This document shows, piece by piece, positions 5,729 to 33,562 of a stretch of 36,222 nt of DNA. A program made the translations under genes and the position numbers. The stretch lies in assembly GCA_003345545.1 (NCBI GenBank), contig PRDH01000038.1, positions 1 to 36,222 on the forward strand, in the 5' to 3' direction. Origin of the DNA: Candidatus Thorarchaeota archaeon. GTDB lineage: Archaea; Asgardarchaeota; Thorarchaeia; Thorarchaeales; Thorarchaeaceae. The notes beneath the pieces were generated by a model that made no database searches, was not told the DNA's origin, and was given only the letters and a program-made list of their open reading frames with translations. Position 1 is the stretch's first letter, and each line of letters starts with the position of its first letter.

Positions 5729-5837
5729 TGGTGGGCCGGCCCGGATTTGAACCGGGGAACCTTCGCCGTGTGAAGGCGACGTATGTTAGAAGGTCAAGAA
5801 GTCTGACCCAATCATAACCGGGCTAGACCACCGGCCC
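5729..5837 (-). tRNA. tRNA-Val(CAC) with 30-nt non-canonical intron at position 23/24 (intron 5783..5812); CCA encoded
   Basis: GGGCCGG/CCGGCCC acceptor, TCGCC-TTCACAC-GGCGA anticodon arm, CCCGG-TTCAAAT-CCGGG T arm; BHB with central helix GTTA/TAAC and bulges TG^A and AT^A. Confidence 0.9.
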
Positions 5838-5870: not shown

Positions 5871-5913
5871 AATGACGCTGTGAGGTGGCTCTGCTGATTT
5901 GAGCAAGGAGGTA

Positions 5914-5936
5914 TGCAAGTCGGCCCCGGCCCACCA
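5914..5936 (+). other. Orphan tRNA 3'-end fragment 1 (T-loop to CCA)
   Basis: TGCAAGT-CGGCC-CCGGCCC-ACCA has exact T-loop/T-stem/acceptor/NCCA spacing; no complementary 5' strands adjacent. Confidence 0.7.
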
Positions 5937-6057
5937 TTCCTCCATAATCGCGTTGTCTTCCCCTCTCCGCAGTTGACAGATTGGAAGGACATCATAATTC
6001 CTATCGTTACAGTTATAACCCAAGCAAAAGACCTCCGAATTAGCTGCACCGGATTGT

Positions 6058-6080
6058 TTCGAATCTCGTCCGGCCCACCA
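6058..6080 (+). other. Orphan tRNA 3'-end fragment 2 (T-loop to CCA)
   Basis: TTCGAAT-CTCGT-CCGGCCC-ACCA; AGTTATAA box at 6011..6018 upstream. Confidence 0.75.
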
Positions 6081-6105
6081 CCAAACAGCACAATGGGGCG
6101 TTGCA

Positions 6106-27372: not shown

Positions 27373-27548
27373 TGCCATCTGATATGACAGACTCTAATCG
27401 CAAATCAAGCAGTCGCCAAACGGAGTGAAGTCTATTAGGGTCTTCAATGTGAAGTGCCCTTCAGCAAAATTCAATTGCCAATGGTAGAAATCGCTAAGGG
27501 TACTCTCAAGCATGTTGCCTTCGTTTATTGACAAGAAAAGAGAGGATC

Positions 27549-29960
27549 ATGAGTTCCATGAAGACAAAGGCTTTTGCTGATATGACTGTCGAACAGGCAT
27601 GTTCCCAGGTGGGTTCAGATTTAACTGGACTCTCACAGTCAGAGGCGGAGTCGCGGCTTCAGAAGTATGGGTACAATGAGATATCAGAGGACAGGAGAAG
27701 CCCCCTGATTGATCTGCTTTCTCGGTACTGGGGACCGATGCCATGGTTGCTCGAACTGACAATAATCCTCTCATTATTGCTGAACCATTTAATTGACGCT
27801 ATCGTAGTCTTTGTTCTCTTGACAATCAACGTTGTAGTGGGCTTCATCAACTCCGATCACTCACAGAAGGCGTTGGAGCTTCTGAAGAGCAAGCTCGCTA
27901 CTAAGGCCAGGGTGAAGCGAAATGGTTCATGGACTAGAGTCGACGCTCGTCAACTCGTCCTTGGTGATGTCATATACTTGAATCTGGGAGATGTTGTTCC
28001 TGCAGATGCCAAGGTGACTAAGGGAGAACTGCTTGTTGACCAGAGCTCTCTAACGGGCGAGTCGCTACCAGTTCATCTTCATGACTCAGATGTTATCTTC
28101 TCAGGGACTGTGGTGACTCAGGGGGAAGGAATGGGACTTGTTGTCAATACAGGAGAGGCTACGTATTTTGGCGCAACTGCAGGTCTCGTCAAGCTCGCCA
28201 AGCCCCAATCGCATCAGATGGATATCGTGATAGGCGTATCAAGGTACTTGCTTTACGCGAGTCTATCTGTATTGGCTGTAACTGCGCTGTATGTATGGCT
28301 TACTAGCGGCGACATGGTTCTGATTGTCACATTTGCAGTTCTCTTTCTCATGGGCTCTATTCCAGTCGCATTACCAGCAGTCACTGCTATTGTTGAGGCG
28401 AGAGGCGCAATGGAATTATCTCGAGAAGGGATTCTTGTGTCTAGGTTGGACTCCATAGAAGATGCTGCATCTATCGATGTCCTCTGTTTCGACAAGACAG
28501 GAACGCTTACTCAGAATCGCATCTCCGTAGTGGATGTCCTCCCTCAGCGTGGTCATGATACATTTGAGGTGGGGATGCTCGCGGCACTGGCATCAAGCGA
28601 GAACAGCAAGGACCTGATTGATTCTGCAATCATAGATTACGCCAAGACCAGGGCGATCGACTATTTCAGTTTCAAGCAGACAGTATTCACGCCATTCACA
28701 CCAAATACAAAGATTGCCGAGGCTATCGTTGAAAGGGGCGACTCACGTTTGAGAGTCATCAAGGGCGCTCCTAGAGAAGTCCTGTCCCGATGCAAGGACG
28801 ATCCGGATAAAGTACAAGGCGTGGAAGACCAGATTTCTCAGATAGCTACTCTGGGTTATAGGACATTGGCTGTTGCACGGTCTATTACGCATGAAAACTC
28901 AAACCTAAGCTACTGCGGGCTGATAGTCATGTCTGATCCGATACGACCAGAATCGAAGGAGATGATTGAACGAATCAGGTCTCTCGGAGTCAGACCATTA
29001 ATGCTCACCGGAGATAGTCTCAGCATCGCCAAGGAGGTGGCCATTCAGACTGGAATCGGTGAGAAGATTGGACTAGCATCAATGCTCAGAAAGGAAAGCC
29101 ACAATCTTCGCTTCGAAATCCTGGACTATGATGGATTTGCTGAAGTGTATCCTGAAGATAAGTATCTAATTGTGAAATCGCTCCAGTCTCAGGGCCACAT
29201 GCTTGGTATGACAGGCGACGGTGTTAACGATGCTCCCGCTCTGAAACAGGCCGAGATGGGCATTGCAGTGAAAGATGCTACTGATGTGTCAAAGGCTTCA
29301 GCAAGCGTTGTCCTCACTAGGGATGGCATCGATGTGATCACACAGGCTCTGATCACAAGCAGAAAGATATACCAACGAATGCTCAGCTGGGTCATCAACA
29401 AGATTGCCAAAGTGATCCAGTTCGTAGGACTGCTCTCATTGGGTTACTTCTGGCTTCACGGACTCGTTTTCCCAGTGATTGGAATGGTTCTACTAATCTT
29501 CTCAAATGATTTCGCCACCATGTCTCTTGCCACAGATAATGCTGCGGGGTCGACCAGTCCCAATCAATGGAACCTGAAGAATATCAGCATCCTAGGCGGC
29601 GTAGTTGGCCTTCTCTTGGTTGCCCAGGGTGCTCTCACAGTATATATTGGCATGACCGTGTTCGAGATGGATTTGAACCAGGTTGGAAGCCTTATTACAT
29701 TCACATTAATCTTCACGAGCCAGTTCAGGATATTGGTCGTTCGAGAGAGGCGGCGATTCTGGGCCTCTCGCCCCGGAAGAGAACTAATGCTCTCTGTAGT
29801 GGGAGTGCTCTTCAGTTTCTCAGTTCTGGCGTTCATTGGTGGTCTCTTGGCTCCTTTGACACTCGTCGAGATTGTTTTTGCAGTGCTATTCTCGGGAGCT
29901 TTCACTTTCATAGTTGTAGATCCTGTCAAGTTCTCTCTCGCAAAACGCTTCGGTCTGTAG
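27549..29960 (+). CDS. P-type H+-ATPase, P3A (plasma-membrane proton pump) subfamily
   Basis: WGPMPWLLE, DQSSLTGES, IPVALP, DKTGTLT, KGAP, MTGDGVNDAPALK, M6 NDFATMSLATD with the proton-acceptor Asp. Confidence 0.93.
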   Translation: MSSMKTKAFADMTVEQACSQVGSDLTGLSQSEAESRLQKYGYNEISEDRRSPLIDLLSRYWGPMPWLLELTIILSLLLNHLIDAIVVFVLLTINVVVGFINSDHSQKALELLKSKLATKARVKRNGSWTRVDARQLVLGDVIYLNLGDVVPADAKVTKGELLVDQSSLTGESLPVHLHDSDVIFSGTVVTQGEGMGLVVNTGEATYFGATAGLVKLAKPQSHQMDIVIGVSRYLLYASLSVLAVTALYVWLTSGDMVLIVTFAVLFLMGSIPVALPAVTAIVEARGAMELSREGILVSRLDSIEDAASIDVLCFDKTGTLTQNRISVVDVLPQRGHDTFEVGMLAALASSENSKDLIDSAIIDYAKTRAIDYFSFKQTVFTPFTPNTKIAEAIVERGDSRLRVIKGAPREVLSRCKDDPDKVQGVEDQISQIATLGYRTLAVARSITHENSNLSYCGLIVMSDPIRPESKEMIERIRSLGVRPLMLTGDSLSIAKEVAIQTGIGEKIGLASMLRKESHNLRFEILDYDGFAEVYPEDKYLIVKSLQSQGHMLGMTGDGVNDAPALKQAEMGIAVKDATDVSKASASVVLTRDGIDVITQALITSRKIYQRMLSWVINKIAKVIQFVGLLSLGYFWLHGLVFPVIGMVLLIFSNDFATMSLATDNAAGSTSPNQWNLKNISILGGVVGLLLVAQGALTVYIGMTVFEMDLNQVGSLITFTLIFTSQFRILVVRERRRFWASRPGRELMLSVVGVLFSFSVLAFIGGLLAPLTLVEIVFAVLFSGAFTFIVVDPVKFSLAKRFGL

Positions 29961-30142
29961 AGTGAAACGAAGCTACACTGGTATGGGGAATCCTATGGCA
30001 TCATCATTTGGGCAGCCCACATACGACATTTTCAAAAGAGCCAAGGCAGGCCAACCGAGATTTGAGCTCAGGACCGCCTCCTCTTTGTTCATCTGGAATC
30101 TGACATCTAGAGATAAAAGAGGAATTATCATGGATAATCGTA

Positions 30143-30832
30143 ATGTCTTCACGCGACTCATCCAGTTTTCATGATAAGAGAGGTGGAAAGTTCATCTATG
30201 TCAGTAGCTGTCTTCTCAATCAGAATCGCCGATTTCCAGGTATCGCAGTCAGTGAAGGTGCAATACCGGGTCTTTTTGAGGAAATCATGAGAAACGGAAT
30301 TGGTATTGAACAGCTTCCATGTCCAGAATGTCTCGGATGGGGAGGAATATCTCGTGACTCTGTCTTTAGATTCATTCCTATCTTTTATCGATATAGTGGT
30401 TCAAGATTGTACCCTCTGATTAAGGCCATGGGAAGAGTATGGTTGTACAAGTACAGAAGGCTGTGCAAGAGGAGAGCACATGAGATTGTCAGAGATATCA
30501 AGAGTGCCCGGTCAAGCGGGTATCGTATTCTCTCCATAATCGCTATGAATGACAGTCCTACATGTGGCGCGACCCGGAAATTGAGCATTCTGGATATGGT
30601 TGCCAATCTCAAAGAGAGAGGTCTGCGAGTCAAGGATATCGAGTGTCCGCAGTTTGACATGATGAGAAAGCACTTGCCGAATCTGCTGGTGGCAGGACAG
30701 GGGCATTTCATGAGTGAACTGATCAATGGGCTTAAGCAGAATGGCATAGTAATACCAGTCTTGGCGTACGACCCTTGGAGTGACCCTCAGAAAGAAACGG
30801 ATAGACTAACTGAAGCACTTCTGGAATTGTGA
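30143..30832 (+). CDS. DUF523/TudS-like (2-thiouracil desulfidase family) Fe-S protein
   Basis: VSSCLLNQN, QLPCPE...GG, DSPTCG, G.G.FM..L. Confidence 0.75.
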   Translation: MSSRDSSSFHDKRGGKFIYVSSCLLNQNRRFPGIAVSEGAIPGLFEEIMRNGIGIEQLPCPECLGWGGISRDSVFRFIPIFYRYSGSRLYPLIKAMGRVWLYKYRRLCKRRAHEIVRDIKSARSSGYRILSIIAMNDSPTCGATRKLSILDMVANLKERGLRVKDIECPQFDMMRKHLPNLLVAGQGHFMSELINGLKQNGIVIPVLAYDPWSDPQKETDRLTEALLEL

Positions 30833-30837
30833 AGAGT

Positions 30838-30865
30838 GAAGGAGTGGTGGACCGGGCGTGATTTG
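30838..30865 (-). repeat. 28-bp copy of the tRNA-Ala 3' end (att-like), distal copy
   Basis: GAAGGAGTGGTGGACCGGGCGTGATTTG, identical to 32230..32257 and 24/28 to 33416..33443. Confidence 0.9.
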
Positions 30866-30971
30866 GCATATGAGCTCTCTTGGCCCTCATCTGAGTTTGA
30901 TTTCAATAGTCATGCTTGTTAGAATATCCTAGTTCCCTGAAGGGAATCTTGTTCTCCGCTAGCTCGGAATA

Positions 30972-32099
30972 TCACTCTCCCTCAAACTGAACGCATTCTA
31001 CCTTTCCTCTAAGCCCTGCTACAAGGCAACGGTTACAAGAAATGCATCGAGCTGGTTCCTGTTTACTGATCTTCGCTTCTTCAGTCCAACGCTGCAAAAG
31101 CGCGGGTTCACTAATCAACGGGCGACTAAGCTGAATCACATCGAAAGCAGCCTTTGGATTTCCGTTCCCTGTCAGTAGCTCAACAACAGTTTCCGGCGAC
31201 CGGATTCCACCTACCAATCCGAACAAGAGACCACTGTCATGAGCTATCGAACGGATAATCGTTGCGTCATCCAAGAAATAAGCCTCACCTACATCCTTCG
31301 GATTCTGACTTGGGTTGGGCCCACTGAATATGACGCAATATGCTCCCGCTTCAGCGAGCCTCTTCGTCAACTCACCTACTTCCTCAGGTCCGACCATTTT
31401 CGAGCTTGAGTCCACCTTCACCTGAATGGGAATATCAACCGCATTCTTCACAGCTCTCACAGCATCCACCATCGCCTTACAACGTCCTTCGATTGTTGCT
31501 CCGGTATATGGGTCATCCACTGGGCGTCTATTGAACGATGGGTCAAAGAATTGCCAAAGCCCATAGTTGTGAGCTCCATGTAGTTCAATCACATCAAATC
31601 CGGCTTTAACTGCACGTTTGGCTGCGTCAGCATACGCCTGAGTGACTCTCTCTACATGGTCCACTGTCATAGCCTTGACTCGAACAACATCCCCCCTAGG
31701 TTGAGGGACCTCCATATCACTGGGTCCAAATGCTATATCGTTGCCAGTGTATTTTGGCAAGCTCCTGCTCCCGCAATGAACCAATTGAGCTGCTGCCAGA
31801 CCACCTGAAGCATGAATCGCCCCAGCAAGGCGTTTCAGGCCTTCAACATCGCTTGCCTTTGAATTAGAGATCATGCGCTTAATCGTCTGTCCTTCATACA
31901 TTACATATTGAAAACCGGTTACCACGACGCCTGCTCTGATCTTGCCATAAGTTTCGATGATGGCCTCCCCGCATATTCCATTCTCTTCCGCCTGACTCAT
32001 CCAGGTAGCGGCCCGCATGATTCGGCTTGATGCAATCATGCCATTTGGCAATTCGAGTTTCTGGAACACAACACGCTCCCAAGTTTCTTGGTCTACCAT
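30972..32099 (-). CDS. NADH:flavin oxidoreductase / old yellow enzyme family with C-terminal Cys cluster
   Basis: RIMRAAT, QLVHCG, RAVKAGFDVIELHGAHNY, VGGIRS, SRPLISEP, CISCNRC...C. Confidence 0.9.
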   Translation of the reverse strand: MVDQETWERVVFQKLELPNGMIASSRIMRAATWMSQAEENGICGEAIIETYGKIRAGVVVTGFQYVMYEGQTIKRMISNSKASDVEGLKRLAGAIHASGGLAAAQLVHCGSRSLPKYTGNDIAFGPSDMEVPQPRGDVVRVKAMTVDHVERVTQAYADAAKRAVKAGFDVIELHGAHNYGLWQFFDPSFNRRPVDDPYTGATIEGRCKAMVDAVRAVKNAVDIPIQVKVDSSSKMVGPEEVGELTKRLAEAGAYCVIFSGPNPSQNPKDVGEAYFLDDATIIRSIAHDSGLLFGLVGGIRSPETVVELLTGNGNPKAAFDVIQLSRPLISEPALLQRWTEEAKISKQEPARCISCNRCLVAGLRGKVECVQFEGE

Positions 32100-32229
32100 C
32101 GAATCAGCTCACATTTTCTAATCCCTCGTGCTCGAAACACAGACTTTTCCACTTTCTTTCATTCGAGTATGAAGGAGCTTCTGATAGAATGATATTCGAT
32201 TAGCATATAGGCTTGGTGTGATGACACGA

Positions 32230-32257
32230 GAAGGAGTGGTGGACCGGGCGTGATTTG
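32230..32257 (-). repeat. 28-bp copy of the tRNA-Ala 3' end (att-like), proximal copy
   Basis: GAAGGAGTGGTGGACCGGGCGTGATTTG, identical to 30838..30865. Confidence 0.9.
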
Positions 32258-32372
32258 ACCCTGTTGTCTTATTCGTGCCCAACGCCTCTTGCAGATTAGA
32301 GTGCAGGCGGGAGATAGATCGAGTTTGATTCTTTTCCGTACATCCAAGAGTAACTATCTAATAATCATGGAA

Positions 32373-33350
32373 TCATTTATGCACTACTCGAAATCCAACC
32401 ACCAGCAGAACTACGACGATGGCTGATAGTGATCCTATCAAGATGATTGCCAACACGACATCGCCGTTATTCTGAGATGATTGGCTATGATTAGGATACG
32501 GATCAGTATTGTCTGCAGGTCCATCAATTGCATATGATCCCAATCCGGAGTAGTCGCTCCACCAGTTGCCAGTATTGGTATTCATGTCGTACCAGTGATT
32601 ATTATCGCCCTCATCATATCCTTGACTGGTCAGGGTGCCAGTTCGCTCATTATCAATAACGTATTCGTCAACATTCCCATTATCGATGAAAGTGTTGTCG
32701 TAGGCTACGTTGTTACTTGAAGTCCCTACAAATACAAGCCCATGTTGAGTGCTATTGGTTATTCGATTGCTGGTAATGATGTTATTATTAGAATAGCGAA
32801 TGTTGATTCCCTGATAGGTGGAATCTGAGATGTTGTTTCCTGAGATTAGACACTGAGATGCTTCATTGAGATGGATGCCCTGAGCCCAGTTCTCACATCT
32901 ATTCTCTAAAACTGTTAAGTTGTCAGTTCCAATGACAATTCCCCCGCCACCTCCCGAACTGGAGATACATGTGTTATTGATTATGGATCCTGTTCCAACA
33001 GCAATGTCAGCTACAAGAATTCCGATATACCTTGACATTATGTGGCAATCACGAATGATGAAGTATGCACTAGTATCTCTAATCGAAATTGCGTTACCAC
33101 GGAGGATACTCGACGTGACATTCAATTGTTCAAGAATGAAGGGATTTCCCTTACTTCCATTTCCAGCAAAACCACCGTCTATGAAGTCTTGATCAGATTC
33201 AATACTGATCGGTTCGTGTAGAATATAGTACTCCGAACTCGGTGTGGAGAGAGCGACAGCTATGGTTGAGGAATTCATTTCGACAGGGATTTGTAAACCC
33301 CAGAAGCAGAGAATCCCAACTAGAAGATAACTGGCCCATCGCAAGTTCAT
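32373..33350 (-). CDS. Cell-surface right-handed beta-helix (NosD/CASH-like) protein with signal peptide and C-terminal TM anchor
   Basis: HEPISI.SD.DF...G.G....PFILE, repeated GI.L..S.N..I..N.I.N, GNWWSDYSG, D.YP, terminal TM helix. Confidence 0.88.
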   Translation of the reverse strand: MNLRWASYLLVGILCFWGLQIPVEMNSSTIAVALSTPSSEYYILHEPISIESDQDFIDGGFAGNGSKGNPFILEQLNVTSSILRGNAISIRDTSAYFIIRDCHIMSRYIGILVADIAVGTGSIINNTCISSSGGGGGIVIGTDNLTVLENRCENWAQGIHLNEASQCLISGNNISDSTYQGINIRYSNNNIITSNRITNSTQHGLVFVGTSSNNVAYDNTFIDNGNVDEYVIDNERTGTLTSQGYDEGDNNHWYDMNTNTGNWWSDYSGLGSYAIDGPADNTDPYPNHSQSSQNNGDVVLAIILIGSLSAIVVVLLVVGFRVVHK

Positions 33351-33422
33351 GGTTCCTCTCCCAAAGGGTCGAATGATTCTATTATTTATTTAAGGTATGA
33401 TTTACGCAATGGTTCCAAGAAG

Positions 33423-33562
33423 TGGTGGACCGGGCGAAATTTGAACTCGCGCCCCGTGAAAACTAGATTCACAGAGTTTCGCGACCTCTTCCATGCCAAG
33501 GAAGCGATCTTTGCCGGCCGCTGCGACAGTTCGCAGCGACTACCGGGCTAATCTACCGGCCC
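33423..33562 (-). tRNA. tRNA-Ala(GGC) with two non-canonical introns: 29 nt in the D loop (33512..33540) and 32 nt at 53/54 (33446..33477); CCA encoded
   Basis: Acceptor GGGCCGG/CCGGTCC gives G3:U70; CTTCC-TTGGCAT-GGAAG anticodon arm; both introns form 9-bp hairpins plus 4-bp central helices (CCGG/CCGG and CGCG/CGCG) with 3-nt bulges; TTTTAA box ~27 nt upstream. Confidence 0.92.

Follow-up and report, generated by a model that had tools for sequence, protein, structure and literature searches.

Stacked, mostly single-gene cassettes separated by copies of a tRNA-Ala 3' end in Thorarchaeaceae archaea

In the tycheposon islands of Prochlorococcus, elements arriving at a tRNA gene push older elements outward, neighbors are separated only by partial tRNAs, more of which are found deeper in the island, and the targets include tRNA-Ala(GGC); these elements carry a tyrosine or large serine recombinase together with replication genes and extend over many kb (bioRxiv 10.1101/2020.12.28.424599). 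An enrichment of integrons in Asgard genomes has been reported, most of them being clusters of attC sites lacking an integrase (CALINs) (PMC9668308), and the integrated elements of Thaumarchaeota include, in the part of the published survey considered here, proviruses, casposons, insertion sequence-like and other mobile elements (PMC6563490). In this study, we sought to characterize a tRNA-Ala(GGC) gene that is followed by small gene units, each closed by a copy of the tRNA 3' end, in a stretch of 36,222 nucleotides (hereafter the window) from a Candidatus Thorarchaeota archaeon (assembly GCA_003345545.1, contig PRDH01000038.1, positions 1 to 36,222). Of all known organisms, Asgard archaea are the nearest relatives of eukaryotes. 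Archaeal elements that reside at tRNA genes, with integrases of the SSV or pNOB8 type, as a rule carry their own recombinase and are larger than these units. In the accretion-mobilization model for the integrative and conjugative elements (ICEs) of Streptococcus, cis-mobilizable elements (CIMEs) are decayed ICEs moved by the integrase of an adjoining ICE.

We regard it as highly probable that the locus is a precisely recombining stack of integrase-less, tRNA-anchored cassettes, a statement common to the explanations by a recombinase in trans and by homologous recombination weighed below. The locus is closest in its working to the additive islands of Prochlorococcus and resembles integrons and CALINs in its outcome, and it lacks the defining features of both families. 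Its likeness to tycheposon islands lies in an additive tandem stack anchored at a tRNA, with partial tRNAs as separators and accessory genes as cargo. Unlike tycheposons, the units have a median length of 1.16 kb, contain a single gene in 57 of 79 cases and carry no recombinase, and in most genomes none is detectable; the hallmark module of a recombinase with a primase or helicase was found in none of the arrays of the genus. With integrons and CALINs it shares small, mostly one-gene cassettes with their own site at one end, exchange inside the site, an order shuffled among relatives and a cargo of unknown, membrane and enzyme genes; it differs from them in having no IntI, attI, folding attC, common orientation or promoter logic, and in that distal sites are not maintained. 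Like CIMEs, the units are bounded by att-like sequences at a tRNA-type site, lack recombination genes of their own and pile up in tandem, but they are far smaller, and no mobilizing partner was found here. The archaeal host, the tRNA target and the direct repeats of a partial tRNA are common to the locus and to archaeal integrative elements. Repeats of the tRNA 3' end and a regenerated intact tRNA were both found, whereas an encoded integrase was not; set against archaeal integrative elements as generally understood and as covered by that part of the survey, the units are smaller and without a recombinase of their own. What the locus adds to the described systems is an empty site in a near-identical strain, a mapped exchange interval and the recurrence of a cassette at the same anchor across genera.

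A repeat search of the window found three in-register copies of the tRNA-Ala end, with spacings of 1392 and 1186 bp. The copies at 30838-30865 and 32230-32257 are identical 28-mers, and the copy at 33416-33443, which includes the end of the tRNA gene itself, matches them at 24 of 28 positions (86%). The chance of one exact 28-mer pair in 36 kb was estimated at about 1e-8. An earlier note on this DNA had described two identical 28-bp repeats of the tRNA-Ala end 1186 and 2578 bp downstream of the gene, both with the same four differences from the resident tRNA end, and the repeat search and its spacings bear out this description. The features of the array are as follows:

33423-33562, minus strand: tRNA-Ala(GGC) gene, 140 nt, anchor of the array (ARAGORN on the spliced sequence)
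about 33511-33541, minus strand: tRNA insert 1, non-canonical, 31 nt, in the D-arm region
about 33452-33483, minus strand: tRNA insert 2, non-canonical, 32 nt, T stem (5' strand), 2 nt ahead of the T-loop
33416-33443, minus strand: resident site, from the T-loop to the CCA (33443 down to 33423) plus the 7-nt tail of cassette 1
32237-33422, minus strand: cassette 1, 1186 bp, a pyrimidine-rich leader, a NosD-like beta-helix gene and its own tRNA-end copy
32373-33350, minus strand: intact beta-helix gene, 325 aa, Beta_helix/NosD, right-handed beta-helix
32230-32257, minus strand: site copy 1, 28 bp, whose tail CTCCTTC is the start of the Old Yellow Enzyme (OYE) cassette
30845-32236, minus strand: cassette 2, 1392 bp, an OYE-family gene and its own tRNA-end copy
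30972-32099, minus strand: intact gene for an OYE-type FMN oxidoreductase, 375 aa, Oxidored_FMN
30838-30865, minus strand: site copy 2, 28 bp, distal end of the OYE cassette

The left part of site copy 1, comprising the T-loop and CACGC, goes with cassette 1, and at site copy 2 the sequence homology to close relatives ends at the CCA. Both downstream copies have the T-stem allele CACGC. A tRNA with the corresponding T arm (GCGTG/CACGC), proposed earlier as something to be located, was found twice, once as tRNA-Ala(TGC) of the same genome (G000:C70:35815-35891, where G000 is this genome) and once in the tRNA-Ala(GGC) of the sister species G006. The tRNA-Ala(GGC) of the window was missed by ARAGORN in default mode and by Rfam because the gene carries two non-canonical insertions. 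These inserts, of 31 and 32 nt, were located by alignment to the intron-less orthologue of a sister species and removed, and ARAGORN identified the remaining 77 nt as tRNA-Ala(GGC) with a G3:U70 pair. Introns are present in many tRNA genes of the source genome (2.69 Mb, 48% G+C, 92.9% complete).

The state of the locus was compared among near relatives; several public contigs encode a protein at least 90% identical to the OYE of the window. A JGI metagenome contig of 3199 bp (L212) is 99.1% identical to the window from upstream of the tRNA through the CCA plus 6 nt, and 96.7% identical from site copy 1 via the OYE gene into the gene for a 229-aa protein. The two alignments share the 28-bp site, and L212 therefore matches the window except that precisely the 1186-bp beta-helix unit is absent. 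At the junction of L212, the left part of the tRNA (..AAATTTCG, TTTCG) is followed by the core and then by the OYE leader (CTCCTTCT.., CTCCTTC). This junction is the reciprocal of the two junctions of the window, the hybrid expected from reciprocal recombination. The identity common to the two junctions of the window is CGCCCGGTCCACCACT, 16 nt of the acceptor/CCA core, and the exchange that distinguishes the L212 state from the window state fell within it. The junctions thus displace the crossover from the T-loop, which the earlier note had suggested, into this core.

Other relatives use the same slot differently. In L211 (92-95% identical), the OYE gene comes right after the tRNA and is followed by a different series of site-closed cassettes, with one for a 582-aa NosD protein, a 93-aa one and others; OYE likewise immediately follows the tRNA in genomes G014 and G020. 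The slot is occupied in G001 and L213 (93-94% identical) by an 871-bp FMN-reductase unit with its own left part (..GAGTTCAAATCTCGA). At a divergence of a few percent, one slot is therefore empty, filled with one gene or filled with a different gene. The comparison of content among relatives thus revealed both the absence of exactly one unit, in L212, and different units in the same slot of sister lineages, in agreement with the gene-content variation expected earlier. Beyond OYE, G001 has an 819-bp third unit with a decayed end site, versus 3.46 kb including a P-type ATPase in the window. As the content past OYE differs among relatives, either exchange at inner sites or swapping of whole segments would have to be involved.

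We then considered the distribution of such arrays in the genus. The 12-nt core of the site is present in up to nine copies per genome in 28 species, where three tRNA-Ala genes are expected, and a reversed-pattern control yielded 0-1 copies. Across 40 fetched loci, 94 tRNA-end fragments were counted in 21 of the 28 species, 16 of which contain at least two; further arrays were found on 32 metagenome contigs. The 79 units bounded by fragments measure 285-6291 bp (median 1158 bp) and have a median coding share of 0.85, the 57 single-gene units being those with exactly one open reading frame (ORF) of at least 80 aa. The order of the units is shuffled among relatives. The idea of small, mostly one-gene, integrase-free units stacked at a tRNA end, with a content that varies among relatives, thus held for the genus. 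Each interval of the window holds one intact gene on the strand of the tRNA, but this co-orientation is not general, as 58 ORFs of the 79 units share the direction of the tRNA and 54 have the opposite one (binomial p=0.78, no bias).

Individual cassettes recur in different contexts. The most common one encodes TM146, a 146-aa membrane protein with three helices. In six TM146 cassettes, homology begins at the CCA of the preceding site and runs up to the following one, the sequence outside is unrelated and the neighbors differ in all six cases. At least 13 species of the genus keep the OYE cassette beside tRNA-Ala(GGC), several of them immediately behind the tRNA. The leader of this cassette (CTYCTTCT.. 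then TGTYATCACA) stays the same after nine different left parts, among them that of the tRNA itself in G014 and G020. The cargo comprises small membrane or secreted proteins, OYE, FMN reductase, aldehyde:ferredoxin oxidoreductase, beta-lactamase-fold proteins, NosD and LVIVD surface proteins, a methyltransferase-like protein, a PLD and TIR pair, CAAX protease, peptidase C25, APH and SatD. Genes for replication, packaging or recombination were not found among the cargo of the genus arrays. The beta-helix gene of the window has no homologue at E<=1e-30 in the other 27 species of the genus. Its best three matches among 86 genomes of the family belong to two other genera (52%, 45% and 45% identity). 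Both homologues in genus g27 (52% and 45% identity) lie within arrays of tRNA-Ala fragments, one as a single-gene unit between fragments and the other first behind the tRNA, and the beta-helix gene family therefore lives in tRNA-Ala arrays. Between the arrays at tRNA-Ala(GGC), at tRNA-Ala(TGC) and at other anchors, the search for shared cassettes gave distant, family-level similarity only.

In the sister genus g18, most tRNA-Ala fragments begin at the anticodon loop or stem, with spacings of 0.5-10 kb around defense-like genes. These islands contain a UvrD helicase and a HerA-like ATPase, and neither a PF00589 (tyrosine recombinase) match nor any other recombinase was found in them. A conserved g18 gene pair encodes an 852-aa HerA/TraG-like P-loop ATPase and a protein of 902-904 aa without Pfam match (L169:11014-16287, L171:3189-8456 and L170:4073-6631), and in two species it terminates exactly at the 3' end of tRNA-Ala(GGC). 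Two arrays of the genus under study also have a particular organization. In G011 (L023:10048-11691), the unit next to the tRNA encodes a nuclease-like protein of the PLD family and a TIR-domain protein, which looks like a defense pair, and the original intron-bearing tRNA-Ala is a decayed pseudogene located 1.85 kb behind a newer, intron-less copy. In L028 (G012:C146:2072-4131), three complete tRNA-Ala(TGC) genes stand in tandem with one fragment, and two units are identical 849-bp repeats, each also carrying a gene for a 159-aa membrane protein.

The anatomy of the site was derived from 107 unique fragments. Information is close to zero upstream, rises within 2-3 nt at T54/T55 and stays high to the CCA, and no conservation was detected upstream of the T-loop in these fragments. 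After the CCA come nine positions that are 78-96% pyrimidine, as behind real tRNAs; this tract lies outside the tRNA sequence and is kept in unrelated cassettes. The site thus spans about 32 bp, the size of a simple recombinase core site. The whole T arm is retained in a minority of fragments. Fragment boundaries are concentrated at the T-loop in this genus, whereas in g18 they are concentrated at the anticodon loop. These two loops are reportedly the classical sublocations of tRNA-targeting integrases, as set out by Williams in 2002. A single array can hold several T-stem alleles, with CCCAC, CACGC, CGCGG and CTCAC in G011. Such diversity requires a crossover 3' of the T stem, within the invariant CCGGTCCACCA, since the tRNA would otherwise be broken. 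With exchange at this place, the T-loop and T-stem part of a site belongs to the preceding cassette and the tail after the CCA to the following one.

The insert in the T stem of the window tRNA (33452-33483) is located 2 nt from the start of the fragments, and its presence differs among species of the genus. Its position fits introns limiting the usable attachment sequence. Protection of archaeal tRNA genes from integration by introns is an old idea, and the proximity of intron and fragment boundary makes the present case relevant to it.

Around the directly observed product junctions, near-identical empty site, reuse of one slot, cassette-specific left parts and leaders and spread through genus and family, we propose the following mechanism. 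A cassette would have three parts, namely a leader of about 9 nt that is rich in pyrimidines, an accessory gene (in most cases a single one), and about 23 nt that mimic the tRNA-Ala 3' end from the T-loop to the CCA. It would enter by one reciprocal exchange between its mimic and the tRNA 3' end, inside the acceptor/CCA core (the 16-nt interval in the case of the newest unit of the window). Entry would restore an intact tRNA, place the newcomer beside it, shift older cassettes outward and add one copy of the tRNA end; inner sites would probably take up cassettes as well. A cassette would be deleted when two site copies exchange with each other. The intermediate may be circular or looped out.

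As to the catalyst, we consider it plausible, if a little short of probable, that a site-specific recombinase supplied in trans acts on the stack, encoded by an unbinned extrachromosomal element or belonging to an unrecognizable family. A compact and sharply delimited site of about 32 bp that includes a pyrimidine tract outside the tRNA, as well as fragment boundaries at two tRNA loops, argues for such an enzyme. As a general rule, precise duplications of tRNA ends are made by integrases, which counts in the same direction.

A number of results weigh against this explanation. Mobilization in trans, as suggested in the earlier note, is still inferential: the searches revealed no helper recombinase, and recombination on short homology is a serious competing explanation. 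The own genome contains no PF00589 candidate, and among the 28 genomes of the genus PF00589 is found in eight, never on an array contig. All 18 genus contigs with a PF00589 match were screened, and none carries a tRNA or a tRNA-Ala-like site. A six-frame search reading through stops in the 28 genomes gave no PF00589 remnant on the array contigs. Resolvase-type serine recombinases occur in eight of the 28 species, Cas1 (PF01867) in one and TnpB in 19, and none of these is on an array contig among the matches listed, which for the Cas1 casposase also speaks against a casposon. Tyrosine recombinase, serine recombinase and Cas1 are all absent from the array-bearing genomes G004, G011, G013 and G006 and from the genome of the window. 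No carrier of the site was found in IMG/VR, where a 19-mer of the site had no match; a looser 15-mer hit 96 stretches, and the 80 of these that were screened were chance matches in genes or unrelated tRNAs. Among the 32 metagenome matches there was no circular contig with a single site, and none of the 18 whole site-bearing metagenome contigs had a terminal overlap. Neither dyad symmetry nor a shared left arm beyond the tRNA sequence was found in the fragments. Many distal sites have two to four mismatches and decay at a roughly neutral rate, so that not all are maintained; between sister species, the divergence of orthologous distal sites is about that of the genes, and inner sites are therefore largely scars. 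Five assemblies with an identical OYE protein all keep the gene order of the window, and turnover is therefore not rapid. Finally, this genome or its relatives also have arrays of a 16S rRNA trailer and of a 20-mer on contig C31, arrays of 5' fragments of the same tRNA, and fragments behind other tRNAs, and each would need a recombinase of its own.

Two candidates for the catalyst were rejected. Both TnpB copies of this genome adjoin tRNAs, but several array-rich species have none. Recurrent cassette proteins were considered as hidden recombinases, and by Pfam and PHROGs none is recombinase-like: F00, F04, F06, F08, F11 and F14 are small membrane or secreted proteins and F02 is methyltransferase-like. 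A PF00589 match is absent from 20 of the 28 species of the genus, including genomes that are 95-97% complete, and these archaea therefore seem to lack a recognizable XerA-type recombinase.

The same stack could arise with no dedicated enzyme, by host homologous recombination using the tRNA end as portable homology of 16-32 bp, a real possibility that we would still not call probable. Small circles would enter by a single crossover, or linear DNA of relatives by two (at the tRNA and at a site copy), and a crossover between direct copies would delete units. This explanation accommodates two negative results, namely that neither the arrays nor their surroundings hold a recombinase of a known family and that many array-rich genomes yielded none at all. 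One mechanism would also account for the 16S-trailer array on contig C81, the C31 20-mer, the fragments behind tRNA-Gly and tRNA-Leu and the 5'-fragment arrays of relatives more economically than many integrases. The anchors are the most conserved sequences available, as homology across species requires, and the fragment boundary falls 2 nt from the T-stem intron, where the homology of the gene ends. The absence of a gene orientation bias and the decay of distal sites are in its favor as well. The sharp left boundary in tRNA loops is however unexpected from random donors, unless there were few founder sites, the pyrimidine tract after the CCA is kept in unrelated cassettes, and the source of new site-bearing cassettes is left unexplained. 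Moreover, stretches of 16-28 bp do not exceed the minimum length that homologous recombination usually needs to be efficient.

Taken more broadly, we tentatively suggest that Thor-type Asgard archaea may capture genes without any element-borne integrase, short copies of the ends of ultra-conserved genes (tRNA-Ala and rRNA) serving as portable attachment sites for the insertion, removal and exchange of one-gene cassettes between species and genera. The catalyst would be either host recombination on about 16-32 bp or an unrecognized recombinase family. If this is true, the arrays would fill the functional role of the integron in archaea, although their sites follow another logic, and either catalyst, host recombination on very short homology or a new recombinase, would amount to a new mechanism of horizontal gene gain. 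The locus offers a concrete route for gene gain in Asgard archaea, with a site of about 32 bp, a 16-nt exchange interval and a pair of strains with and without the unit, and a pool of membrane or surface, redox and defense-like cassettes recurs at the same site across genera. It might also become a tool for targeted insertion in archaea.

We find it unlikely that the arrays are heavily eroded tandem islands, in which integrase elements of many kb have decayed to single genes between att scars, as the earlier note had offered as an alternative. The g18 fragments spaced 0.5-10 kb around defense-like genes, a 7.2-kb island with repeats of about 65 bp at tRNA-Gly(TCC) in the present genome and the decay of distal sites would suit such a history. 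The six-frame PF00589 search, however, gave no integrase remnant on array contigs, and the units are compact (coding share 0.85) with one intact ORF in most. The 1186-bp unit was precisely gained or lost at 97-99% identity, different one-gene units occupy the same slot and the same small cassette recurs with different neighbors. Neither the beta-helix nor the FMN-reductase gene was found in a large integrase-bearing element with the same att ends in the 86 family genomes.

A true integron or a CALIN is very improbable, although the earlier note had called the system integron-like: the tandem of short, mostly one-gene cassettes with a recurring site and the reported enrichment of integrons in Asgard genomes (PMC9668308) recall these systems, but the sites are plain tRNA 3' ends, no IntI was found, orientation is balanced, many distal sites decay, the array begins at a tRNA and not at attI, and both window sites with 47 nt of flank, taken as single-stranded DNA, fold worse than shuffled sequences on both strands (z +0.84 to +2.39, without a dedicated attC model). 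It is hardly credible that the copies function at the RNA level, for example as 3' halves of split tRNAs or as signals for processing or termination of the adjacent genes; the lineage does have tRNA genes with several introns, and the pyrimidine tract after every copy could be an archaeal terminator, but the copies start in the T-loop without a conserved promoter, leader or complementary partner upstream, decay away from the tRNA and adjoin genes oriented both ways, and a complete, intact tRNA-Ala(GGC) exists.

The array of the window is flanked by modules that also vary among relatives:

27373-30844: distal variable segment, content differs among relatives
27528-29960, plus strand: P-type ATPase, in the distal variable segment
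30143-30832, plus strand: DUF523-like gene, 229 aa, in the distal variable segment
33774-35123, plus strand: variable module 5' of the tRNA, a 165-aa ORF and a winged helix-turn-helix (wHTH) regulator, FilR1-like

The distal variable segment also holds a 70-aa ORF, and no distal site was recognizable for it, including between the ATPase and TrmO. The module with the 165-aa ORF and the wHTH regulator is missing from G001, and in G011 it forms a site-flanked unit within the tRNA-Ala array.

Repeats with other anchors were observed in this genome and in relatives. On contig C81 (G000:C81:68406-78800), copies of about 115 nt of the stretch that follows the 16S 3' end are spaced 1.2-1.5 kb apart in a cassette-like manner; the array at tRNA-Ala differs from it in having a tRNA as its anchor and a repeat of about 23-32 bp. 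Seven copies of a 20-mer (AGAGCCTCATACGAAGGAAC), 0.5-2.5 kb apart, give a similarly cassette-like arrangement at G000:C31:150-7400. Fragments of tRNA ends are also found behind tRNA-Gly and tRNA-Leu in this genome. At tRNA-Gly(TCC) (G000:C22:3053-10323, L208), a direct repeat of about 65 bp, covering the T arm to the CCA plus 35 nt of flank, lies 7.2 kb downstream, and a further copy of the tRNA-Gly end is on contig C40. The island in between encodes a 1701-aa protein without Pfam match and a 557-aa TnpB-like protein, and the TnpB-like gene converges on the tRNA. The only other TnpB of the genome (C16, about 24.4 kb) abuts tRNA Ser-GCT.

In other species, arrays of 5' fragments of tRNA-Ala are located upstream of the real tRNA (L031, G012:C125; L030, G009:C151; L022, G004:C110). 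These fragments consist of the conserved promoter region (about 50 nt, ..CCACAATTCTTTTAAC..) and the first 22-33 nt of the gene, and are spaced 0.9-3 kb apart; one copy includes part of the first intron. The window contains no 5'-fragment copy of tRNA-Ala. A second intron-bearing tRNA lies at 5729-5837 of the window (minus strand), which ARAGORN with introns labels Pyl/cta, probably wrongly. Upstream of it and inverted are two fragments resembling the stretch from T-loop to CCA, at 5903-5936 and 6046-6082 (both plus strand), which end in CCGGCCCACCA, the acceptor end of this tRNA.

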